From: an uncultured candidate division Zixibacteria bacterium
GTDB taxonomy: Bacteria; Zixibacteria; MSB-5A5; UBA10806
DNA: 64,000 nt
Assembly (NCBI GenBank): GCA_963801605.1
Contig: CAWDFP010000006.1
Coordinates: forward strand, 32,001-96,000
Direction of reading: 5' to 3'
Numbering within the stretch: position 1 is the first letter of the stretch; each line of letters opens with the position of its first letter. The notes below the pieces were generated by a model. The model made no database searches, was not told where the DNA came from, and was given only the letters and a program-made list of their open reading frames with translations. A program made the position numbers and the translations under genes. Positions 17,575-32,832 of this stretch are shown in pieces.

Positions 17575-17898
17575 ATGACCAAAGATTACGAATTAGCTGA
17601 ACTCAAAGCCGATGTTTTAAAAGCCATGGCCCATCCTACCAGGCTCTATATGCTGGAGATGCTTGCAGGGGGCGAGCGCTGCGTGTGCGAGCTAAATGAA
17701 ATGGTCGATGCCGATCATTCGACTATCTCCAAGCATTTGTCTATTTTAAAGCAATCGGGACTGGTTTCCGATCGCAAGGATGGCCTCAAGGTCTATTACA
17801 AGCTTGAGGTGCCCTGTGTACTCGATTTCGTGAAATGTGTTACCAAAGTTATCGCCAAGAGGACTCAAAAACAGCTGACGGCATTAAGGGAAAGCTAA
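17575..17898 (+). CDS. ArsR/SmtB-family regulator
   Basis: KAMAHPTRL, ERCVCEL and SKHLSILK..GLV motifs. Confidence 0.95.
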   Translation: MTKDYELAELKADVLKAMAHPTRLYMLEMLAGGERCVCELNEMVDADHSTISKHLSILKQSGLVSDRKDGLKVYYKLEVPCVLDFVKCVTKVIAKRTQKQLTALRES

Positions 17899-17902
17899 TC
17901 CT

Positions 17903-18988
17903 ATGGCACAGGAATCGCTTATCGAATCTGAACCTAAAATTAAAAAGGAAAGCGCAGACGAAAGAAAGCCGCAAACACTGGGGCTTATTTCCAAACTCGC
18001 TTTAGGGGCAGTTGTTTGGGTCATCCTGTATTATTATCTGCAGCCTCTGACCGCTTGGCTATCAGTTTCCGTTCTGGGCCTATCACCCGAAAATCGACTG
18101 GGAAGCGCCTTCATTTTCTTTGTCTACGAAGCTCCGAAAGTGTTAATGCTTTTGGCTGGTGTGGTATTTATAGTTGGCGTCGTCCGTTCATTTTTTACCC
18201 CTGAGCGTACCCGCCAGATGCTCGTCGGACGGCGGGAGCTGGCAGGCAATTTCATGGCCTCTGCTTTGGGTATAGTCACCCCCTTTTGCTCCTGCTCGGC
18301 TGTTCCGCTCTTTATCGGCTTTGTAGAAACAGGCGTTCCTCTTGGAGTCACCTTATCGTTTTTGATTGCCGCTCCCATGATAAATGAAGTTGCTTTGGTG
18401 ATGCTACTGGGTATGTTCGGCCTAAAGGTTGCGGCCATTTATGTATCCACCGGCCTGGTTATTGCCATCATATCCGGGTTTGTCATTGGACGGCTACGCC
18501 TTGAACGCTATGTTGAGGAATGGGTGCATACGGTAAAGCTGGGGGATAGCCATTCGGACGAAATCAAATACACATGGCGGGACCGAATTGAAATCGGCAC
18601 TATCGCCACCAAGGAAATCGTCGGCAAGGTCTGGCCTTATGTATTGGGCGGTATAGCCGTTGGCGCTTTCATTCACGGCTACGTACCTGAAAACCTGATG
18701 GCATCATTTATGACTAAAGGCTCCTGGTGGACCGTACCCCTGGCAGTCTTATTGGGCGTTCCAATGTATTCTAATGCCGCCGGAATTATCCCCATCATGC
18801 AGGCATTGTTAGAAAAAGGGGTACCGCTTGGCACCACGCTTGCTTTTATGATGGCGGTCATCGGACTCTCATTGCCCGAGACGATTATTCTTCGGAAAGT
18901 GCTTAAGATTCAGCTTATCCTGATATTTGTTGGAATTGTGGCAGTAGGAATAACAATAGTAGGCTATCTTTTTAATTTAATATTGTAA
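17903..18988 (+). CDS. ArsP/DUF318-family permease
   Basis: TPFCSCSAVP, APMIN and GLSLPE motifs. Confidence 0.92.
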   Translation: MAQESLIESEPKIKKESADERKPQTLGLISKLALGAVVWVILYYYLQPLTAWLSVSVLGLSPENRLGSAFIFFVYEAPKVLMLLAGVVFIVGVVRSFFTPERTRQMLVGRRELAGNFMASALGIVTPFCSCSAVPLFIGFVETGVPLGVTLSFLIAAPMINEVALVMLLGMFGLKVAAIYVSTGLVIAIISGFVIGRLRLERYVEEWVHTVKLGDSHSDEIKYTWRDRIEIGTIATKEIVGKVWPYVLGGIAVGAFIHGYVPENLMASFMTKGSWWTVPLAVLLGVPMYSNAAGIIPIMQALLEKGVPLGTTLAFMMAVIGLSLPETIILRKVLKIQLILIFVGIVAVGITIVGYLFNLIL

Positions 18989-19010
18989 GATACGTGAAAT
19001 AGGAAGATGT

Positions 19011-19505
19011 ATGAAAAATGCGTTTGGCAGTATCTGGTTAATAATTTTATCCTCGTTGTTTATAAACAGTGGATTAGGGCATAGCGCTTTGGCAGGTGGG
19101 GCTGATAACCCTGATAGCACGGCTGCTTTAGATTCAATGAAAATACATTTACAAACTGAGAACCTTCATCGCCTGCAGGCAGATCTGAAATCGGGCAAGC
19201 CGACTCTGGCCTTCTTTTACTACTCTGTAGCCTGCTCCTGCACGGCAGCCAGATGCCAGATTGCGGCAGCGGTCATTGACAGCATCCCAGAGCTTCATGG
19301 TAAAAATGATTCTTTAAATTATGGAGCGCTTGACGCCTACCTGGTGCCCGAAGCGGAAAGCCTTTATAATCTCATGATTATGCCGGCTGTAGTGTATTTC
19401 GATAAAAATGGTAAAGAGGTAAACCGCCTGGAGTGGGGCACCAGCCGAGATGCCATTAAAATGCTCATCGTGCATCCTGATATAAAACAAGTTCCCGTAG
19501 ATTAA
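19011..19505 (+). CDS. Exported thioredoxin-fold protein (CxC...C)
   Basis: Signal peptide; FFYYSVACSC...C and P..VYFDKNGKEV. Confidence 0.65.
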   Translation: MKNAFGSIWLIILSSLFINSGLGHSALAGGADNPDSTAALDSMKIHLQTENLHRLQADLKSGKPTLAFFYYSVACSCTAARCQIAAAVIDSIPELHGKNDSLNYGALDAYLVPEAESLYNLMIMPAVVYFDKNGKEVNRLEWGTSRDAIKMLIVHPDIKQVPVD

Positions 19506-19524
19506 ATTAGAAGGAGATAAAGAT

Positions 19525-19788
19525 ATGAAAATCCAGGTCCTTGGCACGGGCTGTCCAAACTGCAAAAAAACGGCCCAGATTATTAAAGATGCCGCGAAAA
19601 ATCTCGGTCTGACTGAGGGGTCAGACTATTCGTTCGAGAAGGTTGAAACCATGGCCGAAATCATGAAATTCGGGATACTCATGATGCCGGGTATTGTTAT
19701 CGACGGCAAAGTCATTTCATCCGGCAAGGTGCCGTCATTGGCAGAGGCTACAACCATAATCACCAACCGACTGGCGCAGGAGGGATGA
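19525..19788 (+). CDS. Small redox-active disulfide protein (Thioredoxin_3)
   Basis: IQVLGTGCPNC and PGIVIDG motifs. Confidence 0.92.
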   Translation: MKIQVLGTGCPNCKKTAQIIKDAAKNLGLTEGSDYSFEKVETMAEIMKFGILMMPGIVIDGKVISSGKVPSLAEATTIITNRLAQEG

Positions 19789-20207
19789 TGAAAAGGAGTA
19801 TTCTCATTTCTCTAACAACAACTGCAGTCGTAGTATGCTTGGCATCTTTCGGTTATTCGGAGAAAACCGACAAGGCATCAAAAAAATCTTCGCCGGTCGC
19901 TATCAAGGCCCAAAGCGTATCCACAGCCAAACTTCCTCAGATCCTCGATCTCGGCAGCAAAAGCTGCATTCCCTGTAAGGCGATGGCTCCAATACTCGAC
20001 AGCCTGCGTCAGGAATTTAAGGGCAAGGCTGAAGTTTCTTTTATTGATATCAAAGAAGACCGGGCCGCTGCGACCAAGCATAAAATTACCCTGATACCGA
20101 CTCAAATATTCTTTGACTCATCGGGGACCGAAGTGTTTCGTCATATCGGCTTTTTCCCGGCTGACTCTATTACCATCCATTTGAAACAAGCGGGGGCAAA
20201 GCTTTAG
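19785..20207 (+). CDS. Exported thioredoxin
   Basis: DLGSKSCIPC and IPTQIFFD motifs. Confidence 0.9.
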   Translation: MMKRSILISLTTTAVVVCLASFGYSEKTDKASKKSSPVAIKAQSVSTAKLPQILDLGSKSCIPCKAMAPILDSLRQEFKGKAEVSFIDIKEDRAAATKHKITLIPTQIFFDSSGTEVFRHIGFFPADSITIHLKQAGAKL

Positions 20208-20884
20208 TGGATTCCCTGGCGCTCTTTATCCAGAACAATCCGGCTTTCGCCATTGTCGCCGTCTTTGCTGGTGGCCTAGTCTCGGCCGCTTCGCCCTGCG
20301 TCCTGGCAGTAATCCCGCTGGTAATTGGCTATGTCGGTGGCTATTCCCAAGGGGATAAGAAGAAAGCCTTTCGCTATGCTTTGGTATTTGCGTTGGGCCT
20401 TGCAATTACATTTACATTAATGGGAGCCGCTGCCGGTCTTATTGGCTCTTTTCTGGGACTAACCGGCAAATATTTTTTCTGGGCCATTGCAGCAATTGCC
20501 GTTATAATGGGGCTATCGCTAATAGGCCTATTTGAAATCCGGATCCCATTTAAGGACAAACTTAAAGTAAAAACGGGCGGCTTGCTCGGGGCTTTTTTAA
20601 TGGGGCTGCTATTCGGGCTTGCATCCACGCCTTGTGCAACACCTGTATTAGTGGTGCTATTAGCTCTTGTCGCCACCAAAGGGCGAATACTATATGGCAC
20701 ATTTCTGCTATTCGTATATGCTATTGCTCACTGCGCCCTAATAGTATTGGCCGGAACAATAACCGGTTTTGTGGAATCTTTCGCCAAGTCGCGCGGAGCT
20801 ACCAATTTTTCGATCTGGTCTAAACGAATATCGGGAGCAATAATTATCTTGGTTGGCGGTTATATCTTCTATTTATATATATAA
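20207..20884 (+). CDS. ccdA: CcdA/DsbD-type transmembrane thiol-disulfide transporter
   Basis: SPCVL and TPCATP conserved Cys in TM segments. Confidence 0.9.
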   Translation: MDSLALFIQNNPAFAIVAVFAGGLVSAASPCVLAVIPLVIGYVGGYSQGDKKKAFRYALVFALGLAITFTLMGAAAGLIGSFLGLTGKYFFWAIAAIAVIMGLSLIGLFEIRIPFKDKLKVKTGGLLGAFLMGLLFGLASTPCATPVLVVLLALVATKGRILYGTFLLFVYAIAHCALIVLAGTITGFVESFAKSRGATNFSIWSKRISGAIIILVGGYIFYLYI

Positions 20885-21002: not shown

Positions 21003-21459
21003 TTATCTGCCGTAGATATCCAATAGCTGAAGCCTGGTGGCGTCGAGGCGTTCTGCCATGATTTCCGTGAATATCTGCATCATTTTAAATCCAAGTCCGT
21101 TATCCTTCTCGCATTTTGTACGAAGGCATTTACCGTCAAGAGCGATGACCCGGGTTTGCTCAGTTGCCTTAGCGTCAAAACGCCATTTATATGGTGGAAT
21201 AAGCCACGACCAGCCAACGACGTCACCCTCGGTGCAAGTTTGAATGCAAATAGACCCTTGCCATGGGGAGAAAACTTCCACAATCACACGACCATGTCGG
21301 ATGACATAGAAAGTGTTAGCCTCCTCACCCTCTTTGAAAATATATTGATCAGAATTAAAGACAACATTGGAGGCGCATCCCACCATGAGTTTGATTTCGG
21401 CATCATTGAAGCTTTTAAAAAATGGATGAGATATTAGCAAAGGTTCAATTGTTTCCATT
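21003..21459 (-). CDS. Cyclic-nucleotide-binding domain protein (no HTH)
   Basis: IFKEGE, GDVVGWSW and RLQLLDIY motifs. Confidence 0.85.
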
Positions 21460-21972
21460 TTTTTGCTCCTTATCATTGACTTTTTGCCTGATTGCCAGGC
21501 TATTCCCACCATTAAAACCGATCCAGTTTAGGATTCGATTTATGGCTGGTTCCAATGCTGCCTCTACCAGAGGGGTCAATTTCTCACTTAATGTCTGGAT
21601 ATCCATTGCTTCTATAGCAAGGACGTCAATCCTATCCGGCATGCTAATTCCCATTTCGCGACCAAATTTCAAAGCCGTCGGAAGGTTAATCTGATGACTG
21701 CAGGTCAAATTCTTTGAGGGTACAAAATGGCCCATTTCAGTAAAATGAAGAGTGCCCGGAACCGCTTCATCGGTTATGATAGTATCAACAATTAGCGCCC
21801 GTTCTCTGTCTTTCAATAAGTCAATGAGATTTAGCCCGCCCAAGGGCGAGAATTCAATATCTACTCCTCCATTAAAATCGTATTGCTCTATAAGATTGCG
21901 GGCAATTTTATAGCCGAATGAATCGTCTGACAAAATCTCATTCCCCAGGCATAATACAAGCGCTGGTTTCAT
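21445..21972 (-). CDS. Hydrogenase maturation protease
   Basis: LGNEILSDD, IVD and SH motifs; follows the large subunit. Confidence 0.92.
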   Translation of the reverse strand: MKPALVLCLGNEILSDDSFGYKIARNLIEQYDFNGGVDIEFSPLGGLNLIDLLKDRERALIVDTIITDEAVPGTLHFTEMGHFVPSKNLTCSHQINLPTALKFGREMGISMPDRIDVLAIEAMDIQTLSEKLTPLVEAALEPAINRILNWIGFNGGNSLAIRQKVNDKEQKNGNN

Positions 21973-23454
21973 TAGTTCCTCTTGATAACCTTGATTTTCT
22001 CGCCGCTGGCAGCATCATGAATAATTAATTCAAGAGGCATTTGCCCCGGCAATGAGTGAGTTGCGCAACCAAAGCAGGGGTCATAAGCTCGGAAAGCCAT
22101 CTCGATTCTATTGAGCATGCCGTCAGTAATTTCGCACCCCTTTTTAATCATACCCTCAGCGGCGCGCTTGATTGACATGGTAATCGCGGCGTTATTGTTC
22201 GTCGTCCCGACAATAAGATTAGCCTCGGTGATAATGCCGTTTTTATCCGTCCGATAGTGATGAGTTAAAGTCCCTCGAGGCGCTTCTACTATTCCAACTC
22301 CTTCACCAACAATGCTTGTGGGAGGATCAAGAATATGATCTGACGTGATCTCATCATCCTGCGCCTGTAAGAGAACCGACTCGCAAGCGAACATAAGCTC
22401 CACAACTCGCGCCCAGTGAGTCGCCAGAGTGGAATTTACCGGTATTTTGCCGGAACGATCCCCGGTCAGCGTTTCATAAAATCTTTCATATTCCGCTTGA
22501 GCCAGCGGTGTAGCCATGCCATCGGATACATTAAGACGCGAAAGGGGAGTTGCTTTATACACACCCGAATCCATACCGTCGATAAATCCCTTCCAACCGA
22601 TCTTTTTTAGGAATGGATATTTCAAGTAACTGTATGGCTCAACATGCTCGGCGACATATTCAAGATATTGTTTCGGTTCATATTTGGCGTGTTCTGTGCC
22701 GTCAGGCGCTGTTACGCGAACCATTCCGTCATAGAAATGAACCTTGTTGTTTGAATCTACCAGCCCCATATTATAAGTCTTATGGGCATATGAATCTGAG
22801 AGGATAAGATCGATATACGCCTTATTTGCCAGGACGACATCATTCAAAACTTTAATGGTAAATTTGGCAAATTCAACCATCTCCTGCCCAATCTTAATCA
22901 TTTCCTGCTGTTCTTCTTTGGTCACCCGTTTCGACATCCCGCCGGGAAGGGCGGTAACGGGATGAACCTTCTTGCCGCCGATTATTTCGATGACCCTCTG
23001 GCCGCGGGCTCTTTGGGCAATGACTTTCCTGCCGGCATCAAGGCCAACTTTGGCGATTACACCCAGGATATTACGCTCGGCAGGGAGGAGCATCTGGGCC
23101 ACAGACAAAATCAGGGCCGCCGAGGGCATAAAAATGCGTCGTATGGTCGCCGGCATAGAAACCGTTATATACCAATTCTCTCAGCTTAAAGGCCGCCGAT
23201 GGGATTTTTGCTCCATAGACTGCATCGGCGGCCTTGGCTGCTGCCATGTGGTGTGCATCCGGGCAAACGCCACAGATGCGGGTTGTGATGCGACACATTT
23301 CTTCAACGGGACGGCCCACGCAAAATTTTTCAAAACCTCGAAGTTCAGGTACCTGGAAGTAGGCATTGGCGAGATCTCCATCGTCATTAATAAACAAATG
23401 TATTTTACCGTGGCCTTCGAGGCGGGTTATCGGATCGATTACTATCTCTTTCAT
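21972..23454 (-). CDS. mvhA: [NiFe] hydrogenase large subunit, group 3c; frameshift near 23075
   Basis: TRLEGH, RICGVC and [12 protein letters not shown] plus a cleavable C-terminal tail. Confidence 0.92.
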
Positions 23455-24426
23455 CTTTGTGCTCTCCTCAACATTGAATCGGGAAGGCTAAAGCGATAAA
23501 ATGTGCCGATGGGATCGGGAATCGTATCGATTATTGACTCTATTTCCTCCGGATTGGTTGAATCGATGATGCTGGCAATCGCGGAGGCCATTTTGGCTCC
23601 CTGGTCGCGCACATTGGAAGGCATCCCGTAACAGCCGCGGCAGGGGACTCCAGCCTTAACGCATTTGGCGCCGCATCCGCTTCTGGTAGCCGGTCCCATG
23701 CAAACTATGCCCTGCTCCATCAGACATAAATTTGGATCTGTCACCTTTTCAAACGGCCTGATAAACTTCTTTATCTTTCTTGATATTCCTCTCTCGCGGA
23801 CATTCATCACAGCAACTTTTTTCGCTCGCGCCCAAGACAGTCCCTTTGGGCGGAAGTGGCTTTCCGTTCTTTCAGGATATCGATAACCGCTCCAACCACC
23901 GCTGCGATCTGATCGGATTGCGGCGGGCAACCGGGAATGATGTAATCAACTTCCACAGTTTGCCCCAAAGTGCGCACCGTATTCCACAAATCGGGAATTC
24001 TGTATTTCACCCTCAGGGAGCGTTATAGATCGGTTGAGGTATCGTTTTTGTTGGATTATCTACAGAAGGCGAATTTAGATAGACGTAGTCAAATATTGCC
24101 TGCTTGCTATAAAGATTGGCCAGACCGGGAATGCAACCTTCGGCAGCGCAACTTCCAAAGGCACAAAGGACCACCGATTTCTGCCGCAGGAGCTTGGCGA
24201 TTTCATAGTTTTCATCGCTGCGAATTGCGCCGTTGAATAGTGTCAGCGTAATTGATTTATCGGGCATTTTTCTAACATCGTCGTACTTAAAATCAAGGGC
24301 ACAAGGCCAGAATATGGGATCAAAAAAGTCTACCACGCCAAGTATCTTCTCTTCAATATCAAGTATGGCGATATCGCATCCCCCACAAGAAGCAGCCCAA
24401 TATATTGCTAACTTTGGTTTTGCCAT
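23451..24426 (-). CDS. mvhG: [NiFe] hydrogenase small subunit; frameshifts near 24012 and 23840
   Basis: SCGGC, GSCA, PGCPP, CMGPAT..GC...C and PCRGCYG motifs. Confidence 0.9.
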
Positions 24427-24890
24427 AACATTTCTCCCAACGCCTTAAAGTCAACAGTCTCTTCTTTTTCCGGCGTAAAATTCAGTTCTTTCAACTGAAG
24501 CGGCCCCAATGCGCGGATATGCTCGGTAAATTCAGTAACGATCTTCTGAAAACGCCCTCCCTCTGATGCCGAGACCCATTCCAGGCGCAGCCGCTCCGAT
24601 TCGATACCCATGCTTTGGAGAATCCTTTTCGTAAGAGGCATCCGGCGCATGCATTTGTAATTCCCTTCCACATAGTGGCAATCGCCGGGATGGCAACCGC
24701 AGACAAGTATCCCATCGGCGCCTTTGCTGAAAGCGTGCAATATGAAGCCGGGATCGATTCGCCCGCTGCACATAACCCTGATACTTGTCATGTTTGGAGG
24801 ATACTTCATACGGGCGGTACCGGCCAGATCGGCGCCAGTGTAGCTGCACCAGTTGCACAAGAAGCCAACTATTTTGGGTTCAAAGCTCAT
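24408..24890 (-). CDS. mvhD: MvhD [2Fe-2S] adaptor
   Basis: FLCNWCSY, RVMCSGR, GCHPGDCHY and WVSASEG motifs. Confidence 0.96.
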   Translation of the reverse strand: MSFEPKIVGFLCNWCSYTGADLAGTARMKYPPNMTSIRVMCSGRIDPGFILHAFSKGADGILVCGCHPGDCHYVEGNYKCMRRMPLTKRILQSMGIESERLRLEWVSASEGGRFQKIVTEFTEHIRALGPLQLKELNFTPEKEETVDFKALGEMLWQNQS

Positions 24891-26645
24891 GATAGTATTC
24901 CTTCTATTTGAGCGTAAATCTGATCGTCGGTGAAGTGCTTGGCAACTATCGCGCCCGACGGACATGCTGCTACACATGTACCGCAGGCTTTGCACATAGC
25001 CGAGTTGACCGAGCTTTTCTTTTTCTCGCTATCAAATTCAATAGCATTATATGAACAAAGATCATTACAGATTCGGCATCCACTACATAAATCTTCAGTG
25101 ACCACCGGCAAAGGCGGCATCCATCAATATCTCTTTCTGACAAAGAAGTTTTAAGGCGTGAGACGCCGCCGCCCCGCCTTGCGCTACAGTATCGGGGATA
25201 TCCTTTGGCCCCTGGCAGGTGCCGGCGAGATAGATGCCATCTGTTGTAGTCGAAACCGGTCCGAGCTTGGGGTGAGCCTCAATAAACCAGCCATCAGCTC
25301 CTGTGGAAATGTTGAATTTGCGGCCAACCTCCTTGGCATCTTTTCGGGCTTCAAGGGCAGTGCAGAGGATTACCATATCGACGGGGATCTCGCGGAATTT
25401 CCCGACCAGCGTATCTTCGCAACGAACTAGAAGATATCCTTCCGATCCGCGATGGCTCGAAGATGGGACAATCTCAGCCCCTTTGCCGCGAATGATATTT
25501 ACATTCTCTTCCAGTATCCGCTGATAGAACTCCTCATAACCTTTGCCGAAACTTCTGACATCGATATAGAGCTGATAGACCTCAGCGCTGGTTTTCTCCT
25601 TAACAAGGTGCGAGAACTTGAAAGCGTACATACAACAGACGCGGCTGCAATACTTATGATAATTTTGATCGCGACTTCCGATGCAGTGAAGAATGGCGAT
25701 TGCGCGCGGTTCCTCACCATTCTCAAGAACGATTTTACCACCGGTCGGTCCCGCGGCGTTGTTCATCACTTCAAATTCCTCTGACGTGATAACATTGGGG
25801 TACTTACCATAACCATATTGTTTCATAGGAGAAGGATCAAAATTATCAAAGCCGGTGGCCATAATGACCACGCCAACATCCACTTCCTCAAATTGCTCGG
25901 TATCATCGTAATGAATGCAATCCTTGGGGCATACCTTGGAGCAGACTTTGCATGCCCCGGTCTTAAAATGAATGCAGAATTCGGGGCTAATTCGTGGCAC
26001 GTTGGGGACTGCTTGCCTGAATGGAAGCGAAATTGCAGAATTGGGCCCCAGCGCCACCTCGTGATGAATTATCTCGCGACCGTCAATGTCCTCTAATCTG
26101 ATATGTCCCGTAGGACAGACTTTGGCGCAGGCACCGCAAAGAATACAGTCCTCGCTGGCATCATCGAATGGAGTTGAGACCTTTCTATACACTCCCCGGT
26201 CGCTGAAGGCCAGAGCATGAGCGCCAACAATTTCATCGCAGACACGTACACACAGTCCGCACAGAATGCAAGTATCGTCGCCCGTACCCCAGCGCGGCTT
26301 TTCTATCCCGAACTGTTGGGCCAACTGCTGCAGAACCGGAGCTGGAGCGCAGCGGCTTAACAGCATTTCCAAATTAACCCTGCGAGCATTCTGGACACGA
26401 GGCGTATCGGTGAATATTTTCAAACCCTTCCAGACCGGATAATTACAGGATGTAACTATCTTCGACCAGTCCTTATCATCACGTGCCTCAACCACGCAAA
26501 TACGGCAGGCGGCATAGGGCGTCATGTAGGGATAGTAGCAAAGGGTTGGGATATTCACGCCCAGTGTCCTGGCGGCCTCAAGAACAAACGTTCCCTCTTC
26601 AACTTCAATCGGATGCCTGTCTATTTCTATTTTTATCATGCTCAT
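24887..26645 (-). CDS. Fusion of NuoG/HydA-like N-terminal Fe-S domain with the C-terminal part of HdrA; frameshift near 25110
   Basis: IPTLC..CRICVVE..SC and 2x CxxCxxCxxxC, then in frame HdrA motifs PFRQAVP, ATGF, HCIGSRD, CSRVCCMYAFK, GTCQGPKDI and a C-terminal 2x[4Fe-4S]. Confidence 0.9.
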
Positions 26646-26654
26646 AGATTTCTC

Positions 26655-28673
26655 CTATGCCACCGCCGATTGCTTTGATACTTTTACCGGTGGACGCCAG
26701 TCTACGCCGGCGATATTTTGGACACCTTCGCCCTCACCCCGTTTGGCTCTGGTTATGCCATCATATTTACAAATCTGATAACAGGCGCCACACTGAATGC
26801 ACTTTTACCTGATCTATCTTATGCAAATTTTTTAATTCGCCTGTGATCGCCTTACTGGAGCACGCTTTGACGCAGGCATGACATCCCGTGCATTTAGCAT
26901 TGATAGCGTGCGAAACCAGATCCTTACAGACTCCTGCCGGGCAGCGCTTATCCTTGATATGCGCCAGGTATTCCTGACGAAAATATCTTAGGGTGGATAG
27001 ATACGGATTGGGCGCGGAACCGCCGAGTTGACAAAGGCTGGTATCGATCATAACCTGCGAAAGTTCTTCCAACAATGACAGATCTTCCATTTTACCCTGA
27101 CCCTCTGGTAATCCGATCAAGAATTTCAAGCATCGTCCGCAGCCCCTCTCGGCAGGGCAGACACTTGCCGCAGCTTTCCTCCCTTAAGAAATTGAGGAAA
27201 TAACGGGCAACATCAACCATGCAGGAGTCCTCATCCATGACAATCATGCCGCCTGATCCCATCATCGAACCTGCCCTGGTCAAGCTCATCGAAATCGACA
27301 GGAAGATCGAGGAGACTGACGACTTCTTCATTGTCATGGATATCGCCGTGCGCTACGAGACTGTCATGAATTTTCTTCTCGCCGGTTTCGACTATCAAGG
27401 TTCCGCCTGATGGTCCCCCGGTTTGCACGGCCTTAAATTTTTTGTGGCCGCGCACTCCACCACCGATATCATAGAGAATCTCCCGCAAGGTGATCCCCAT
27501 GGGAACCTCTACCAAACCAGTATTATTGACCTTTCCTGTCAGACGCGAAAACCTTGGTGCCTTTGGAGCCTTCGGTCCCAATACCGGCATACCAATCGGC
27601 CCCCTTTTCAATAATGATTGGGACATTAGCCCAGGTCTCTACATTATTTAGAGTTGGATGGCTTTTCCCAGAGTCCAGCATCAACGGTATGAATATATTT
27701 GGCTCGCGGTTCGCCCGTTTTACCCTCTAACGATGCCATAAGCGCTGTTGATTCGCCGCAGACAAAAGCACCACCGCCCGCGACTAACCTCAATTGTAAA
27801 ATCAAAACCGCTTCCCAAGATATTCTTTCCCAACAGGCCATATTCGGTAGCGGCATTTATAGCGATCGAGAGATTTTTTACTGCTAACGGATATTCGTTT
27901 CTGACATATACAAATCCCTGGTCGCTGCCAATGGCGTAAGCCCCGATTATCATCCCCTCAACTACCGAGTGAGGATTGCCCTCCAGAAGCGAGCGATCCA
28001 TGAATGCTCCTGGATCACCCTCATCGGCATTGCAGATCACATATTTCGGGATTCCCCTTGGCTTTACGACAGGACGCCCATTTTTTGCCGGTGGGATATC
28101 CTCCGCCTCCTCTTCCACGAAGCCCCGATTTTTTTATCTCCTCGATAATTGCTTCAGGCACCATCTGGCCTAATGCCTTGGCTACTGATTTATATCCGCT
28201 CAAGGCGATGTAATCATCGATCGAAGTCGGATCCATAAAACCGTTTTTGCCGAAGATGAGTCGCATCTGCTTTTTATAGAAGGGAATATCGGCTTCATGG
28301 GTGATTGCTTGCTTGGTTTGGGGATCTTGATACAGAAGACGCTTAATGATCTGATTGCCTTTTATGGTCTGATCAATTATTAGTCTGACATCCGATGGTC
28401 TGAACCTTTTGATAAAAAATCCCTCCAGGTTGAATAACAACAAGTGGTCCTCGCTCACAAAAACCGTGACAACCTGTTGTTTTAAGCTCGACAGCTTCCT
28501 GAAGATTGTCTTGAATCAAGTTCTCTTTGAACGCAGTTGCAACCGCCTCACAGCCGCAGGCCAGACAACCGGTCCCGGCGCAAAGGGCTATAGTGGTTTT
28601 ATTTTCCTTACGCTTTCTGAGAAGTTCCTGGCGAAGCTCGCTCCAGATCTGCTGGCGATGATATAAATTTCAT
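26655..28673 (-). CDS. NuoF/HydB-like FMN/NADH-binding subunit (long form); several frameshifts
   Basis: N-terminal CxGx[46 protein letters not shown] and C-terminal 2x[4Fe-4S] motifs across fragments. Confidence 0.9.
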
Positions 28674-29185
28674 TCTTCTTCCTCCTCATCGCCAGCCGCT
28701 TCCTTGCCGCCAAGCTTTTCAATCATCCGCTCGACTTTGGACGCAGTCATGTTACCGTAGTAGATATCATTGGCAGTAACAAGCGGCCCCAGCGCACAAG
28801 CGCCAAGGCAGTTTACCGTTTCCAGACTGAAACTCTGGTCTTTGCTCGTCTCGCCGGCTTGGATACCAAGCGTGGTTTCAAGTCTATTAACAATAACATT
28901 CGCTTGCCTGACATGACAGGCAGTACCGGTACAAACACAGATATGATTTTTCCCTTTAGGCTTTAGGCTGAATGTGCGGTAAAAAGTAGCCACACCGTAG
29001 ATTTGTGCTATTGGAAGCCCCATCTTCTGCGCCACCAGTTTTAATGCTTCTTTGGGAAGGTAGCGATAATGCTTTTGAATATCTTGCAAGACCATGATTA
29101 GGGCCGTTGGCTTGGCCTGATAGTGATCCACAATATTGTGAATGGCTTGTTCGAGATCATAGTTATCATTGATTGCCAGGCTCAT
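28670..29185 (-). CDS. NuoE/HydC-like [2Fe-2S] subunit
   Basis: VATFY, VCTGTAC and CLGAC..GP motifs. Confidence 0.95.
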   Translation of the reverse strand: MSLAINDNYDLEQAIHNIVDHYQAKPTALIMVLQDIQKHYRYLPKEALKLVAQKMGLPIAQIYGVATFYRTFSLKPKGKNHICVCTGTACHVRQANVIVNRLETTLGIQAGETSKDQSFSLETVNCLGACALGPLVTANDIYYGNMTASKVERMIEKLGGKEAAGDEEEEE

Positions 29186-30155
29186 TTGGTACCTCCTCTC
29201 ACCGGAATTGCGACTGGTTCCGGCATCGGCTGCGCCCCGGTAAGAACTGTGAGATCATGCTCCGGCCCCATGATACCCGGATGCTTGATATCCAAAGCCG
29301 CACCCTCCTTGAAAACATTTTTGCCGAACATCAATCGCCGGTGCGATGGATACTGACGACTGGGGCAAGCTTCATAGCAAGTTCCGCAACTATTGCATAG
29401 GGTTGTATCGACATAGCGGGCTTTATGCCTGATTTTGACAGTGAAATTCCCGATGTAGCCCTTAACATTCTCGATTTCTGCCCATGTAATGAGTTTGATA
29501 TTGGGGTGCTTCCCCACAGAGACCATCTTCGGAGTCAGGATACAAGCAGCGCAATCAAGGGTTGGAAATGTTTTGTCGAATCGCGACATGTGGCCACCGA
29601 TCGAGGAATCTCTTTCGACTAAAACCACTTCAAAACCGGCGTCGGCTATTTGAAGGGCCGCTTCGATACCGGCAATTCCGCCGCCGACTATAAGGACTCT
29701 ATCCTTGATTGGTACTTTTCGCATTTCAAGAGGCTCATGAAATCTCACTCTGGCTATAGCCCCTTTTATAAGAGCGATTGCCTTGGTTGTGGCTAACTGC
29801 GGATTCAACGTAACCCAGCTGACCTGCTCTCTAATATTGGCCATCTCAAAGAAATAGCGATTGAGGCCGCCCGTCTCCACTGCCTTACGAAATGTTTGCT
29901 CATGCATCAGAGGGCTGCAGGCAGCCACGACAATTCTATTGAGACCAAGCTCTCGAATATCTTTTTGAATCAAGTTCCTGACCGGGATCGGAACACATGA
30001 AACGGTAATGACGCGAGATCGACAACTCCCGGCTGATCCTGAACCGCTTCGGCGACTTTGACCACATCCACCGTTTTAGCAATATTAGTTCCGCAATGGC
30101 AGACATAGACGCCAATGCGGATCTCCTTGCCGTTATCTGAATGGGTATTATTCAT
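29182..30155 (-). CDS. hdrA: HdrA N-terminal part; frameshifts near 29975 and 30015
   Basis: GVYVCHCG.NIA, AACSP..HE, NIREQ, GGGIAG, DKTFPTLDC..CI and one CxxCxxCxxxCP, then stop. Confidence 0.9.
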
Positions 30156-31036
30156 GCTCTGGCCTCCTTTAGGCCGACATAAAGTTCCTCCGGCTTAATT
30201 AATAGCTGGTCCATTCCCATTTCTTTCGGAGAAATACCAAGCGCTATTCCTATCAGATGACTGAAATAGACTATTGGCATTTTGAAATTTCGTCCGTAGA
30301 CTCGATTAATCTTCCGCTGGTAGGCCTCGAGGTTCATCTGGCAAAGCGGGCAGGCTGTTGCGATCATATCGGCTCCGTTGTCAAGTGCGCCATCCAGAAG
30401 CTTGAGATTCAGCTCCAGGGCAATCTCCTCAGCGGTGGTCATAAGCATCCCGCCACAACAGCGAACTTTGTAGGGATAATCAATCGGTTCAGCTCCCAGA
30501 GCGGCCAGCAGCTTATCCATCGTTACGGGTTGATCGACATCATCGAATTGCCCATGCGGACGGACTATCTGACATCCGTAGTAAGGAGCTACCTTTATTC
30601 CCTTTAAATTATTACTGACTTTTTTGGTAAGCGCTTCAAGGCCTAAATCGTTAACAAGAATATCCAGCGGATGACGCACCTCAACCAGGGTATCATAAGA
30701 TAGATTGGCTGCAGCAAGTGCCTGGTTAATTTTATCTCTTTCCTTGGGATCCCAGGCGATATGACGGTTGGCCTTGCGAAGGATCGTATAGCAACTGCTG
30801 CATGGCGCGCAAATTTGCATCCCCATGTTTTGAGCAAGAGCCAGATTGCGAGCGCTGATCGAATATCCTACGATTTTTTTGACTGACATATACATCGTGG
30901 CGCCGCAGCAATTCCAATCCTCAATCTCATGCAGGCCGATCCCCAGAGCCTTAAATACTGCCCTTATCGATTTATCATAAGGGCCGGCAGTGTGCTCCAA
31001 ACTGCATCCGGGATAATAGGCGTATTCCAGCATCAT
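30152..31036 (-). CDS. hdrB: Heterodisulfide reductase subunit B
   Basis: YYPGC, two CCG motifs, YYGC and ACPLC. Confidence 0.95.
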   Translation of the reverse strand: MMLEYAYYPGCSLEHTAGPYDKSIRAVFKALGIGLHEIEDWNCCGATMYMSVKKIVGYSISARNLALAQNMGMQICAPCSSCYTILRKANRHIAWDPKERDKINQALAAANLSYDTLVEVRHPLDILVNDLGLEALTKKVSNNLKGIKVAPYYGCQIVRPHGQFDDVDQPVTMDKLLAALGAEPIDYPYKVRCCGGMLMTTAEEIALELNLKLLDGALDNGADMIATACPLCQMNLEAYQRKINRVYGRNFKMPIVYFSHLIGIALGISPKEMGMDQLLIKPEELYVGLKEARA

Positions 31037-31620
31037 CCTTCTCCAAACTGATTGGCTTTATTAATAATGGCGCGAATCTCTTTAATCCGCTTCAAGCTCT
31101 TTGGCAGAAGCCCGAGGCGACGATTCTTGATCATGGTCAATCCAAAGCGAAAATTTGGGAATAATTTCACAATATTGGTGCTTAAAATATACTTCAAGCC
31201 GAGTCCCAATTCGTAATTTCTGCCGTATTTATAAACGTTATCCGTAAATGTTTTTGATAGAGTATGAACCGGGAAACGCAATGGATATATCTGCTTTTCC
31301 ATGGCGATTCGTTTGAGGGCATATAACGTATCGGTTATCTTAATCCCCACGGGACATCGTACCGTGCACGAATAGCATGAGGCGCATAGCCAGATCGCTC
31401 GACTCCGAAGGATATCTTCCATCATACCAGCCCTAAACAATGCCACAATTTGTCGAGGAGTAATATCCATTGCATACGAGACCGGGCACGAGCCCGTACA
31501 GGTACCACACTGAAGACAAAGCTTGATTTTGTCTCCTTCAGGGAAACTTCCGACCTGGTTCCAAAAGGCGGCACGCAGATCAGCTTCTTTTTTGGGGAAA
31601 GGCATTATAGCATCTTTCAT
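31033..31620 (-). CDS. hdrC: Heterodisulfide reductase subunit C
   Basis: CLQCGTCTGSCP and WLCASCYSCTVRCP motifs. Confidence 0.95.
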   Translation of the reverse strand: MKDAIMPFPKKEADLRAAFWNQVGSFPEGDKIKLCLQCGTCTGSCPVSYAMDITPRQIVALFRAGMMEDILRSRAIWLCASCYSCTVRCPVGIKITDTLYALKRIAMEKQIYPLRFPVHTLSKTFTDNVYKYGRNYELGLGLKYILSTNIVKLFPNFRFGLTMIKNRRLGLLPKSLKRIKEIRAIINKANQFGEG

Positions 31621-32208: not shown

Positions 32209-32832
32209 ATGCACAAAGATAAATCCATAACCAGGGAAAAGATCATTTCCGCGGTAGGCAAGGTCTTAATAAATTCGGGAATGCGTGAAATTGGGATAAA
32301 TTCGATTGCCAGGCAAGCGGGGGTAGATAAGGTTCTTATCTACAGGTATTTTGGAAGCCTCGAAGAGTTACTGCGCGCATTTGTTCAGGAAACCAATCTT
32401 TGGCCAACTTCAGCCGAACTTTTAGGCGAAAAAGCTGTTATTCGACGCACCAGTGACATTAGGGATGTAATAAGTAGTCTTTTAATTAATCAATTGGCTG
32501 AAATCAGACGTCGTAAGCCCACCCAAGAAATTCTTCGGTGGGAGACAATTGAGGAGAACGAGCTTACTCAGTCGCTGGCTGCTGCCAGGGCAAAACAGGC
32601 TTCGGATATTGTCAGCGGTTTTTACCTGACCCAACAACCATCAAAGGATATTGAAGCATTGCTGGCGCTCATTAATGCTGGAATCACCTACTTAGTGCTA
32701 CGATCGAAAATAACGGATAAACACCTGGGAATCGACCTGCATTCAAACTATGGCTGGCAACGACTTTCAAAACTTATTAATGAGCTCGTGGCCGATTATT
32801 TGAAAACCGCTGACGGAAGTGCTACAAAGTAA
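32209..32832 (+). CDS. TetR/AcrR-family regulator
   Basis: IARQAGVDKVLIYRYFG HTH. Confidence 0.93.
   Translation: MHKDKSITREKIISAVGKVLINSGMREIGINSIARQAGVDKVLIYRYFGSLEELLRAFVQETNLWPTSAELLGEKAVIRRTSDIRDVISSLLINQLAEIRRRKPTQEILRWETIEENELTQSLAAARAKQASDIVSGFYLTQQPSKDIEALLALINAGITYLVLRSKITDKHLGIDLHSNYGWQRLSKLINELVADYLKTADGSATK

Follow-up and report, generated by a model that had tools for sequence, protein, structure and literature searches.

The gene cluster described here belongs to an uncultured candidate division Zixibacteria bacterium (assembly GCA_963801605.1) and interrupts the gene for heterodisulfide reductase subunit A (HdrA) with three genes, the third of which continues, as a fusion, into HdrA's second half. 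The nearest named HdrB (76%) likewise suggests a Zixibacteria host. It lies in the window, that is, the whole stretch of 64,000 nucleotides that was analysed (contig CAWDFP010000006.1, positions 32,001 to 96,000), where it runs on the minus strand from 31620 to 21003 in the order hdrC, hdrB, hdrA(N), a nuoE-like gene, a nuoF-like gene, a NuoG-like domain fused to hdrA(C), mvhD, mvhG, mvhA, a protease gene and a gene for a cyclic nucleotide monophosphate (cNMP)-binding protein (Table 1). This is the gene order that an earlier, sequence-only reading of the same DNA had given. Neighbouring genes overlap or almost abut. That reading had also recognised a NuoEFG-like module; all three genes are indeed present, with the refinement that the nuoF-like gene is of the HydB/BfuB type, and we refer to the module as bfuC, bfuB and BfuA.

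Table 1. Genes of the split hdrA operon and its divergent neighbour (aa, amino acids; E, expectation value)
Gene	Position in window	Strand	Features
TetR-family regulator, divergent, upstream of hdrC	32209..32832	+	PF00440
hdrC	31033..31620	-	195 aa; Fer4 dicluster domain; 78% to same-genus orthologue
hdrB	30152..31036	-	294 aa; two CCG domains; Cys motifs for both non-cubane sites
hdrA(N)	29182..30155	-	N-terminal cluster domain and first half of FAD domain (GxGxxG, FPTLDCxxC)
bfuC (NuoE/HydC-like, [2Fe-2S])	28670..29185	-	PF01257, E 1e-51
bfuB (HydB-type NuoF homologue)	26655..28673	-	N-terminal [2Fe-2S], FMN/NAD site, B1, B2, two C-terminal [4Fe-4S]
NuoG-like (BfuA)::hdrA(C) fusion	24887..26645	-	
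mvhD, [2Fe-2S] adaptor	24408..24890	-	PF02662, E 7e-57
mvhG, hydrogenase small subunit	23451..24426	-	
mvhA, [NiFe] hydrogenase large subunit	21972..23454	-	RICGVC and DPCFGCATH
Hydrogenase maturation protease	21445..21972	-	PF01750
cNMP-binding protein	21003..21455	-	PF00027

Judged by the motifs, the cut lies in the inserted ferredoxin domain of HdrA, directly behind its first Cys motif, and the fold for flavin adenine dinucleotide (FAD) is divided too. As had been noted before, HdrA(N) ends after the first CxxCxxCxxxCP of this domain, from which a tail of about 60 residues leads to the stop codon. The TGA overlaps the ATG of bfuC (ATGA at 29185-29182, preceded by GAGGAGG). The open reading frame of the fusion begins at 26645, 2.5 kb after the split, with the HdrA portion beginning at around 26050; that portion carries, all in one frame, PFRQAVP, the second Cys motif and CSRVCCMYAFK, which bears out the earlier statement that the remainder of HdrA resumes in frame behind the NuoG-like domain. 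Relative to HdrA in PDB 8RVU, the orthologous HdrA(N) covers residues 13-266 and the fusion protein residues 252-653, an alignment overlap that arises because BfuA has a Cys motif of its own. In the fusion of one relative (L033) the canonical EFDEG stretch follows directly after BfuA, which places the breakpoint between the first Cys motif and EFDEG.

A frameshift-aware alignment of nine genes to the intact operon of a same-genus genome (L021) identified 17 single-base insertions, no deletions and no in-frame stops. Inserted bases fall in hdrA(N) (at 30020 and 29974), bfuB (nine), mvhG (four) and mvhA (one); both the split and the fusion joint are free of them. Because only single-base insertions occur, without stops or deletions, the indels look like systematic sequencing error; an intact 585-residue fusion protein, 95% identical to the window's, exists (P0001). 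With the ATGA overlap behind GAGGAGG and no inserted base at the split, the latter is a true gene boundary and not an indel artefact, as the sequence-only reading had held.

The arrangement recurs widely. In a search for homologues of the fusion, in which 8000 candidates were scored, BfuA and HdrA(C) were fused in all of the best 120, which were listed (65-95% identity). Within the phylum, the joint region was matched at E 1e-60 in 51 of 285 genomes, and 48 of the 285, the window's own included, span the joint; these counts include kin and are thus not independent. We sampled 28 loci, of which five (L049-L053) were set aside as non-fusions; the 23 with the fusion comprised 21 distinct ones once L039 and L040 had been dropped as duplicates. 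The full order hdrC-hdrB-hdrA(N)-bfuC-bfuB-fusion-mvhD-mvhG-mvhA was found in 17 of these 21, three being truncated by contig ends and one (L046) being without bfuBC, and a continuous hdrA in none of them. The stop-start overlap at the end of hdrA(N) was present at 11 of the 12 junctions listed, the exception being L046. In a library at 50% identity, 14 of the best 150 matches had BfuA and HdrA(C) in one stretch. The deposited, unverified names of the fusion homologues include Zixibacteria, KSB1, Eisenbacteria, Acidobacteriota, Ignavibacteriales, Alphaproteobacteria and Eubacteriales. In a plasmid search, the best places stayed below 60% identity, and the ten listed match the NuoG-like part only. 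Both the fusion and the synteny of split hdrA with nuoEF are therefore found in other genomes, and the worry that the join might be chimeric is not borne out, since many independent assemblies carry it. Annotation pipelines obscure the arrangement, labelling its proteins, for example, 'heterodisulfide reductase subunit A', 'NuoE' or '4Fe-4S dicluster protein'.

The eight best PDB matches of the bfuB orthologue were HydB/BfuB subunits (E 1e-181 or better), ranking above NuoF of complex I, and the best PDB match of the BfuA part was chain A of 9MQX, which we take to be Wor-Bfu of the tungsten-oxidoreductase type. Among 19 full-length relatives of BfuB, the Asp of the flavin mononucleotide (FMN) site and the four B1 Cys are invariant, and in the window the FMN/NAD site and B1 motifs are present across its frames. 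The B2 ligands C438, H525, C531 and C536 (A. mobile numbering) occur in 19/19 relatives. At the fifth B2 position, 476, nine have Ser, six Thr and four Cys, and the window has Thr. The N-terminal [2Fe-2S] cluster B5 is complete in 18 of the 19, as are the eight C-terminal Cys of B3/B4. BfuC has the motif for its C1 [2Fe-2S] cluster and BfuA those for A1 and A2; the His-ligated A3 motif of BfuA was absent from all 120 homologues among the matches listed. In PMC9304861 (which, like the other sources cited here, is drawn on as far as its accessible text goes), B2 of BfuABC is defined by the same four ligands plus Cys or Thr at 476, Thr being common in BfuB, and clusters B2-B5 separate bifurcating enzymes from non-bifurcating homologues, which are without them. 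The sequence-only reading had called the insert a diaphorase. An NADH module it is, but that label is too modest: by its ligands, the insert is predicted to be of the bifurcating BfuABC/HydABC type. Two bifurcating flavin sites, previously raised as a possibility, would then be the default reading.

In the HdrABC-Mvh part, the FAD-side Lys motif of HdrA was present in 120/120 homologues among the matches listed, Glu292 and Lys343 were invariant across 46 rows, and the Cys202/Cys205 pair, mapped on the 8RVU alignment, was present in 16/16. We take the bifurcation residues of HdrA to be those numbered Lys409/Glu356. The cluster motifs of MvhD were kept in 20/20 rows, as were the nickel motifs of MvhA, and MvhD is of normal length in the relatives' loci. 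The metal motifs of HdrB, HdrC, MvhD and MvhAG are intact, and all scores lie below the NCBIfam cut-offs for the methanogen proteins. HdrB carries YYGCQ at the place where the methanogen enzyme has His.

Can two separate chains rebuild one HdrA? We modelled residues 10-290 of L021 HdrA(N) together with the fusion, FAD and three [4Fe-4S] clusters, these being the only two chains. The model scored 0.81 (best of three controls, 0.00), with at least 97% contact agreement between runs and a partner predicted local distance difference test (pLDDT) of at least 90; among solved complexes 116 of 157 pass the score mark, and among mismatched pairs 2 of 215, figures that apply only roughly here. The tightest predicted contacts join fusion residues 259-264 to HdrA(N) 153-157 in the FAD sheet, whose strands pair across the chains, and residue 219 to 247 in the ferredoxin domain. 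A further contact with HdrA(N) is made by BfuA residues 167-176. Thus, the two halves are predicted to reassemble into one HdrA with its FAD fold, as their division between two genes had led one to ask. Predicted by itself with AlphaFold2, the fusion gave a poor model (mean pLDDT 58, predicted template modelling score 0.36), which is not used as evidence. In two-cluster ferredoxins each cluster draws ligands from both Cys motifs; with one motif on each chain, both clusters of the inserted domain are therefore predicted to take ligands from both chains. The linker from BfuA to the inserted domain measures 28-29 residues in all 112 proteins in which it was measurable, of 120.

Several variants bear on the history of the insertion. 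In a second class, HdrA(N) is fused to BfuC (L033; 120/120 among the homologues listed), with protein matches named Planctomycetota, TA06 and one archaeon; together with BfuA::HdrA(C), HdrA is thus found covalently joined to the module at either end. Proteins of a third class, about 1080 residues long, consist of BfuA::HdrA(C) followed by a second HdrA (120/120 among the homologues listed), with protein matches in Desulfobacterales, Chloroflexota and WOR-3, including Desulfatitalea alkaliphila and Desulfosalsimonas propionicica. When this long double-HdrA fusion was sought in 201 genomes of the phylum, none of the 45 places found included BfuA. In L031, MvhD is additionally joined to the fusion. 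One same-genus genome (G002) has two distinct split operons (L021:4655-14600 and L033:4655-14642), one of them with HdrA(N)::BfuC. In two loci (L045:4004-7843 and L047:3133-7842), DRTGG, kinase-type ATPase and PHP genes separate hdrA(N) from bfuC, and L047 has an [FeFe]-hydrogenase-like gene there as well. Such DRTGG, ATPase and PHP genes accompany HydABC operons, so their position inside the split suggests that the insert came as a whole cassette, possibly bringing H2-sensing regulation along. At L046:2304-4993, hdrA(N) is followed directly by a fusion with a diverged BfuA; bfuBC is missing from the locus, and no close BfuB was found in that genome (best matches 35% and 47%). Either the split persisted here after loss of the flavin module or the partners are encoded elsewhere.

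The window's genome also contains a second, unsplit hdrCBA-mvhDGA-protease operon (G000:C6:950349-957168; L064). RnfD-type genes were not found in this genome (87% complete); genes for electron-transferring flavoprotein were. The HdrB and MvhA trees each resolve two clades at 100/100, with L064 in the clade opposite to the window's. In a quick BfuB tree without bootstrap, BfuB of four loci from the clade of L064 nests among BfuB of the window's clade; all three trees are unrooted. Three loci (L024, L025 and L032) are mosaic: their HdrA(N) core is 73-74% identical to the unsplit paralogue and 63-66% to L021, whereas the ferredoxin strand and second motif are 69-75% identical to L021 and 36-44% to the unsplit paralogue. 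The simplest reading of the mosaics and the nested BfuB is that the cassette moved between hdr-mvh paralogues by recombination; its loss from the unsplit copy is a conceivable alternative history.

Around the conserved genes, the maturation protease gene is found downstream of mvhA in most relatives. The cNMP-binding protein, which the sequence-only reading had counted into the operon, does lie at its end, but its gene had no match in the relatives' loci among those listed, and it probably stands outside the conserved unit. The divergent TetR protein is a possible regulator of the operon; a similar gene lies upstream in L021 and L022, the window copy being 41% identical to that of L022. Converging on the end of the operon, positions 17575-20884 of the window carry genes that by sequence appearance encode an ArsR-type regulator, a permease, thioredoxin-like proteins and a CcdA/DsbD-like protein. 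Another Bfu-like cluster (L036:7474-13863, L037:5424-11771, L038:5466-11828), also present upstream of the window in the same genome, comprises BfuC, a BfuB extended to about 1060 residues, a 225-residue BfuA and, in addition, a conserved gene whose product has about 540 residues.

Compared with the MvhAGD-HdrABC complex of methanogens (PDB 5ODC, 8RVU; PMC13580544), HdrBC, MvhD, the [NiFe] subunits MvhAG, all HdrA domains and Cys202/Cys205 are shared. There, however, HdrA is a single polypeptide whose inserted ferredoxin domain is free, whereas here two genes encode it, the cut lying inside that domain, and BfuA is fused at the place where MvhB, FmdF or ferredoxin docks in the methanogen complex. 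The class II benzoyl-CoA reductase BamBCDEFGHI (BCRII, or Bam-Bfu) also combines HydBC-type and HdrA-type bifurcating modules in series in one complex, and its BamI resembles BfuA in having three clusters and no His-ligated one (bioRxiv 10.64898/2026.04.10.717634). There, Bfu takes the place of the hydrogenase at the HdrA input and the inserted domain feeds BamBC, whereas here the hydrogenase is kept and Bfu sits at the output; BamE and BamGHI are separate, intact genes, unlike the split HdrA and fused BfuA; and in HdrB here both non-cubane sites retain their Cys motifs. The window's operon contains neither tungsten BamBC nor BamD nor a fused double HdrA (BamE), and the core genes of the 21 distinct fusion loci likewise include none of them, bamB not having been sought genome-wide. 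The proposed order of modules would be the reverse of that in BCRII.

With Type 1 BfuABC (PMC9304861), the operon shares the BfuBC core with all cluster ligands and a catalytic domain fused behind the BfuA clusters; the fused part is here half of another bifurcating flavoprotein, so that the third substrate would be the output of the first bifurcation. A Bfu type with an HdrA half is not listed in the accessible text of that survey. Type III HdrA, HdrA9-11 of ANME-1 archaea and HdrL have an NAD(P)H module (GltD or NfnB) in the same HdrA domain (PMC12054007, PMC9012536), and type III HdrA occurs with mvhADG in Bathyarchaeota (PMC12054007). It is a continuous polypeptide and has a single FAD domain, in contrast to the three-gene FMN module (BfuC, BfuB and BfuA) inserted here in place of GltD or NfnB. 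Three loci (L065-L067) encode an HdrA of about 1490 residues with a GltD-like insert (labelled by eye from sequence likeness) and a second HdrA; in L065 the insert begins some 20 residues further on than the Bfu break, after the PQAVP strand, and is therefore likely to stem from a separate event. In Desulfotignum phosphitoxidans, the same gene families stand together in putative nuoEFG-mvhD-hdrA operons, reported as separate genes and with no split or fusion mentioned in the accessible part of PMC4046663.

We propose, with a probability of roughly 60%, that the [NiFe] hydrogenase, HdrBC, the two-piece HdrA and the fused BfuABC form one H2-oxidising complex in which electrons are split twice in series. 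By analogy with the methanogen structures, electrons from H2 would pass through MvhAG and MvhD to the FAD of HdrA, from where high-potential electrons would travel through HdrBC to a disulfide and low-potential electrons over the shuttle cluster into the inserted ferredoxin domain. The fusion point suggests that they would then reach BfuA, tethered by the linker of fixed length, and that BfuBC would perform the second split, to NAD+ and ferredoxin. The net reaction would be 4 H2 + 2 RSSR + NAD+ + 2 Fd(ox) -> 4 RSH + NADH + 2 Fd(red). That a diaphorase is wired into the low-potential arm of HdrA had been suggested by the sequence-only reading; the fusion into the output domain stands, and the wiring itself is still inferred, from the fusion point and the solved methanogen complexes. 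In methanogen Hdr the low-potential electron leaves the FAD semiquinone and reaches the inserted ferredoxin domain by way of the shuttle cluster (PMC9012536, PMC13580544), the same domain is the exit for low-potential electrons in BCRII (bioRxiv 10.64898/2026.04.10.717634), and Type 1 Bfu enzymes have an input domain at the position where BfuA here meets HdrA (PMC9304861). Characterised group 3c hydrogenases all oxidise H2 in cells (PMC11216029). With the potentials of PMC9304861, we computed that H2 at equilibrium would stand at about 0.9 Pa in the serial scheme; plain Mvh-Hdr would give 67 Pa, and Bfu by itself 15,500 Pa. Assuming disulfides of -220 or -250 mV shifts the first two values and leaves their 72-fold ratio unchanged. 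Ferredoxin would thus be reduced at about 70-fold lower H2 than by plain Mvh-Hdr, at half the ferredoxin yield.

Several points weigh against this proposal. DsrC as disulfide partner was not found in the window's genome (87% complete). Under plentiful H2, passing low-potential electrons into Bfu would waste energy, and L046 keeps the split without bfuBC, so that the second flavin is not always needed. Passing the model test may reflect likeness to the already solved HdrA, and the model spans HdrA(N) and the fusion without BfuBC, Mvh or HdrBC and gives no cluster-to-cluster distances. Moreover, the BfuA homologue BamI feeds the input side of HdrA in BCRII (bioRxiv 10.64898/2026.04.10.717634), and PMC12054007 proposes the opposite assignment of the arms for GltD-inserted HdrA.

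The same complex with the same wiring might run mainly in reverse, with Bfu merging NADH and reduced ferredoxin, thiol electrons joining at the FAD of HdrA, and H2 being released. The serial equilibrium near 1-70 Pa H2, depending on the disulfide, would allow this, as H2-consuming partners can maintain such pressures. Bifurcating enzymes are reversible (PMC9304861), and H2 production has been proposed for GltD-inserted HdrA with mvhADG (PMC12054007); we nevertheless consider this direction unlikely given that characterised group 3c enzymes oxidise H2 (PMC11216029). A variant in which NADH and ferredoxin donate to both disulfide and protons follows a scheme for type III HdrA that is itself a proposal and under which the two arms of HdrA would exchange roles. 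It is rather improbable that the insert is a simple diaphorase or ferredoxin dock, with HdrA as the sole site of bifurcation and no coupling at the FMN. Bifurcation by Bfu is predicted from sequence, L046 dispenses with bfuBC, and the fifth B2 position varies; yet B2-B5, absent from non-bifurcating homologues, are kept in 18-19 of 19 relatives, and Thr at the fifth position is common in BfuB (PMC9304861).

We give little credence to a wiring like that of BCRII, in which BfuA would meet the C-terminal ferredoxin domain or MvhD and NADH plus ferredoxin would serve as an alternative mid-potential input beside H2. It is the wiring of the one solved complex of Bfu and HdrA (bioRxiv 10.64898/2026.04.10.717634), and this C-terminal domain does share a chain with BfuA. 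However, the retained MvhAG would occupy that input, the constant linker leads to the inserted domain, BfuA contacts HdrA(N) in the model, and MvhD has normal length where BCRII has an enlarged BamF adaptor. An assembly artefact or a gene destroyed by insertion, finally, is hardly credible. The 17 frameshifts might hint at it, as might the unsplit operon that could do the job in the same genome, but all 17 are single-base insertions without stops, intact copies with conserved ligands recur in many genomes, and the unsplit operon carries frameshifts too.

We found no description of a split HdrA with a Bfu module in the literature searched, outside which subscription reviews of HdrA modules lie, in keeping with the earlier impression that the architecture is uncharacterised. 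The arrangement is real and conserved, and it apparently represents an undescribed recombination of two known bifurcating machines. Precedents exist for two bifurcating modules in series (BCRII; bioRxiv 10.64898/2026.04.10.717634) and, in type III HdrA (PMC12054007), for an NAD(P)H domain placed within the HdrA domain that is interrupted here. The BCRII preprint describes two distinct bifurcating modules in one oxidoreductase complex as unreported before. If the double-bifurcation proposal is true, the operon would be a second case, with the opposite order, far more widespread and with the link fixed by gene fusion. The broader view, to which we give even odds, is that of a widespread class of double-bifurcating hydrogenases that mirrors BCRII: the low-potential output of their HdrA would be covalently wired to the FMN module of Bfu, yielding NADH and reduced ferredoxin from trace H2, and the Bfu cassette would be a portable plug that entered different hdr-mvh backbones and the double-HdrA proteins of cultured sulfate reducers. 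The naturally split HdrA offers a handle for dissecting the mechanism of HdrA, with the unsplit operon of the same genome as a natural control for assays. For sediment anaerobes, such a complex would mean a lower H2 threshold for ferredoxin reduction.

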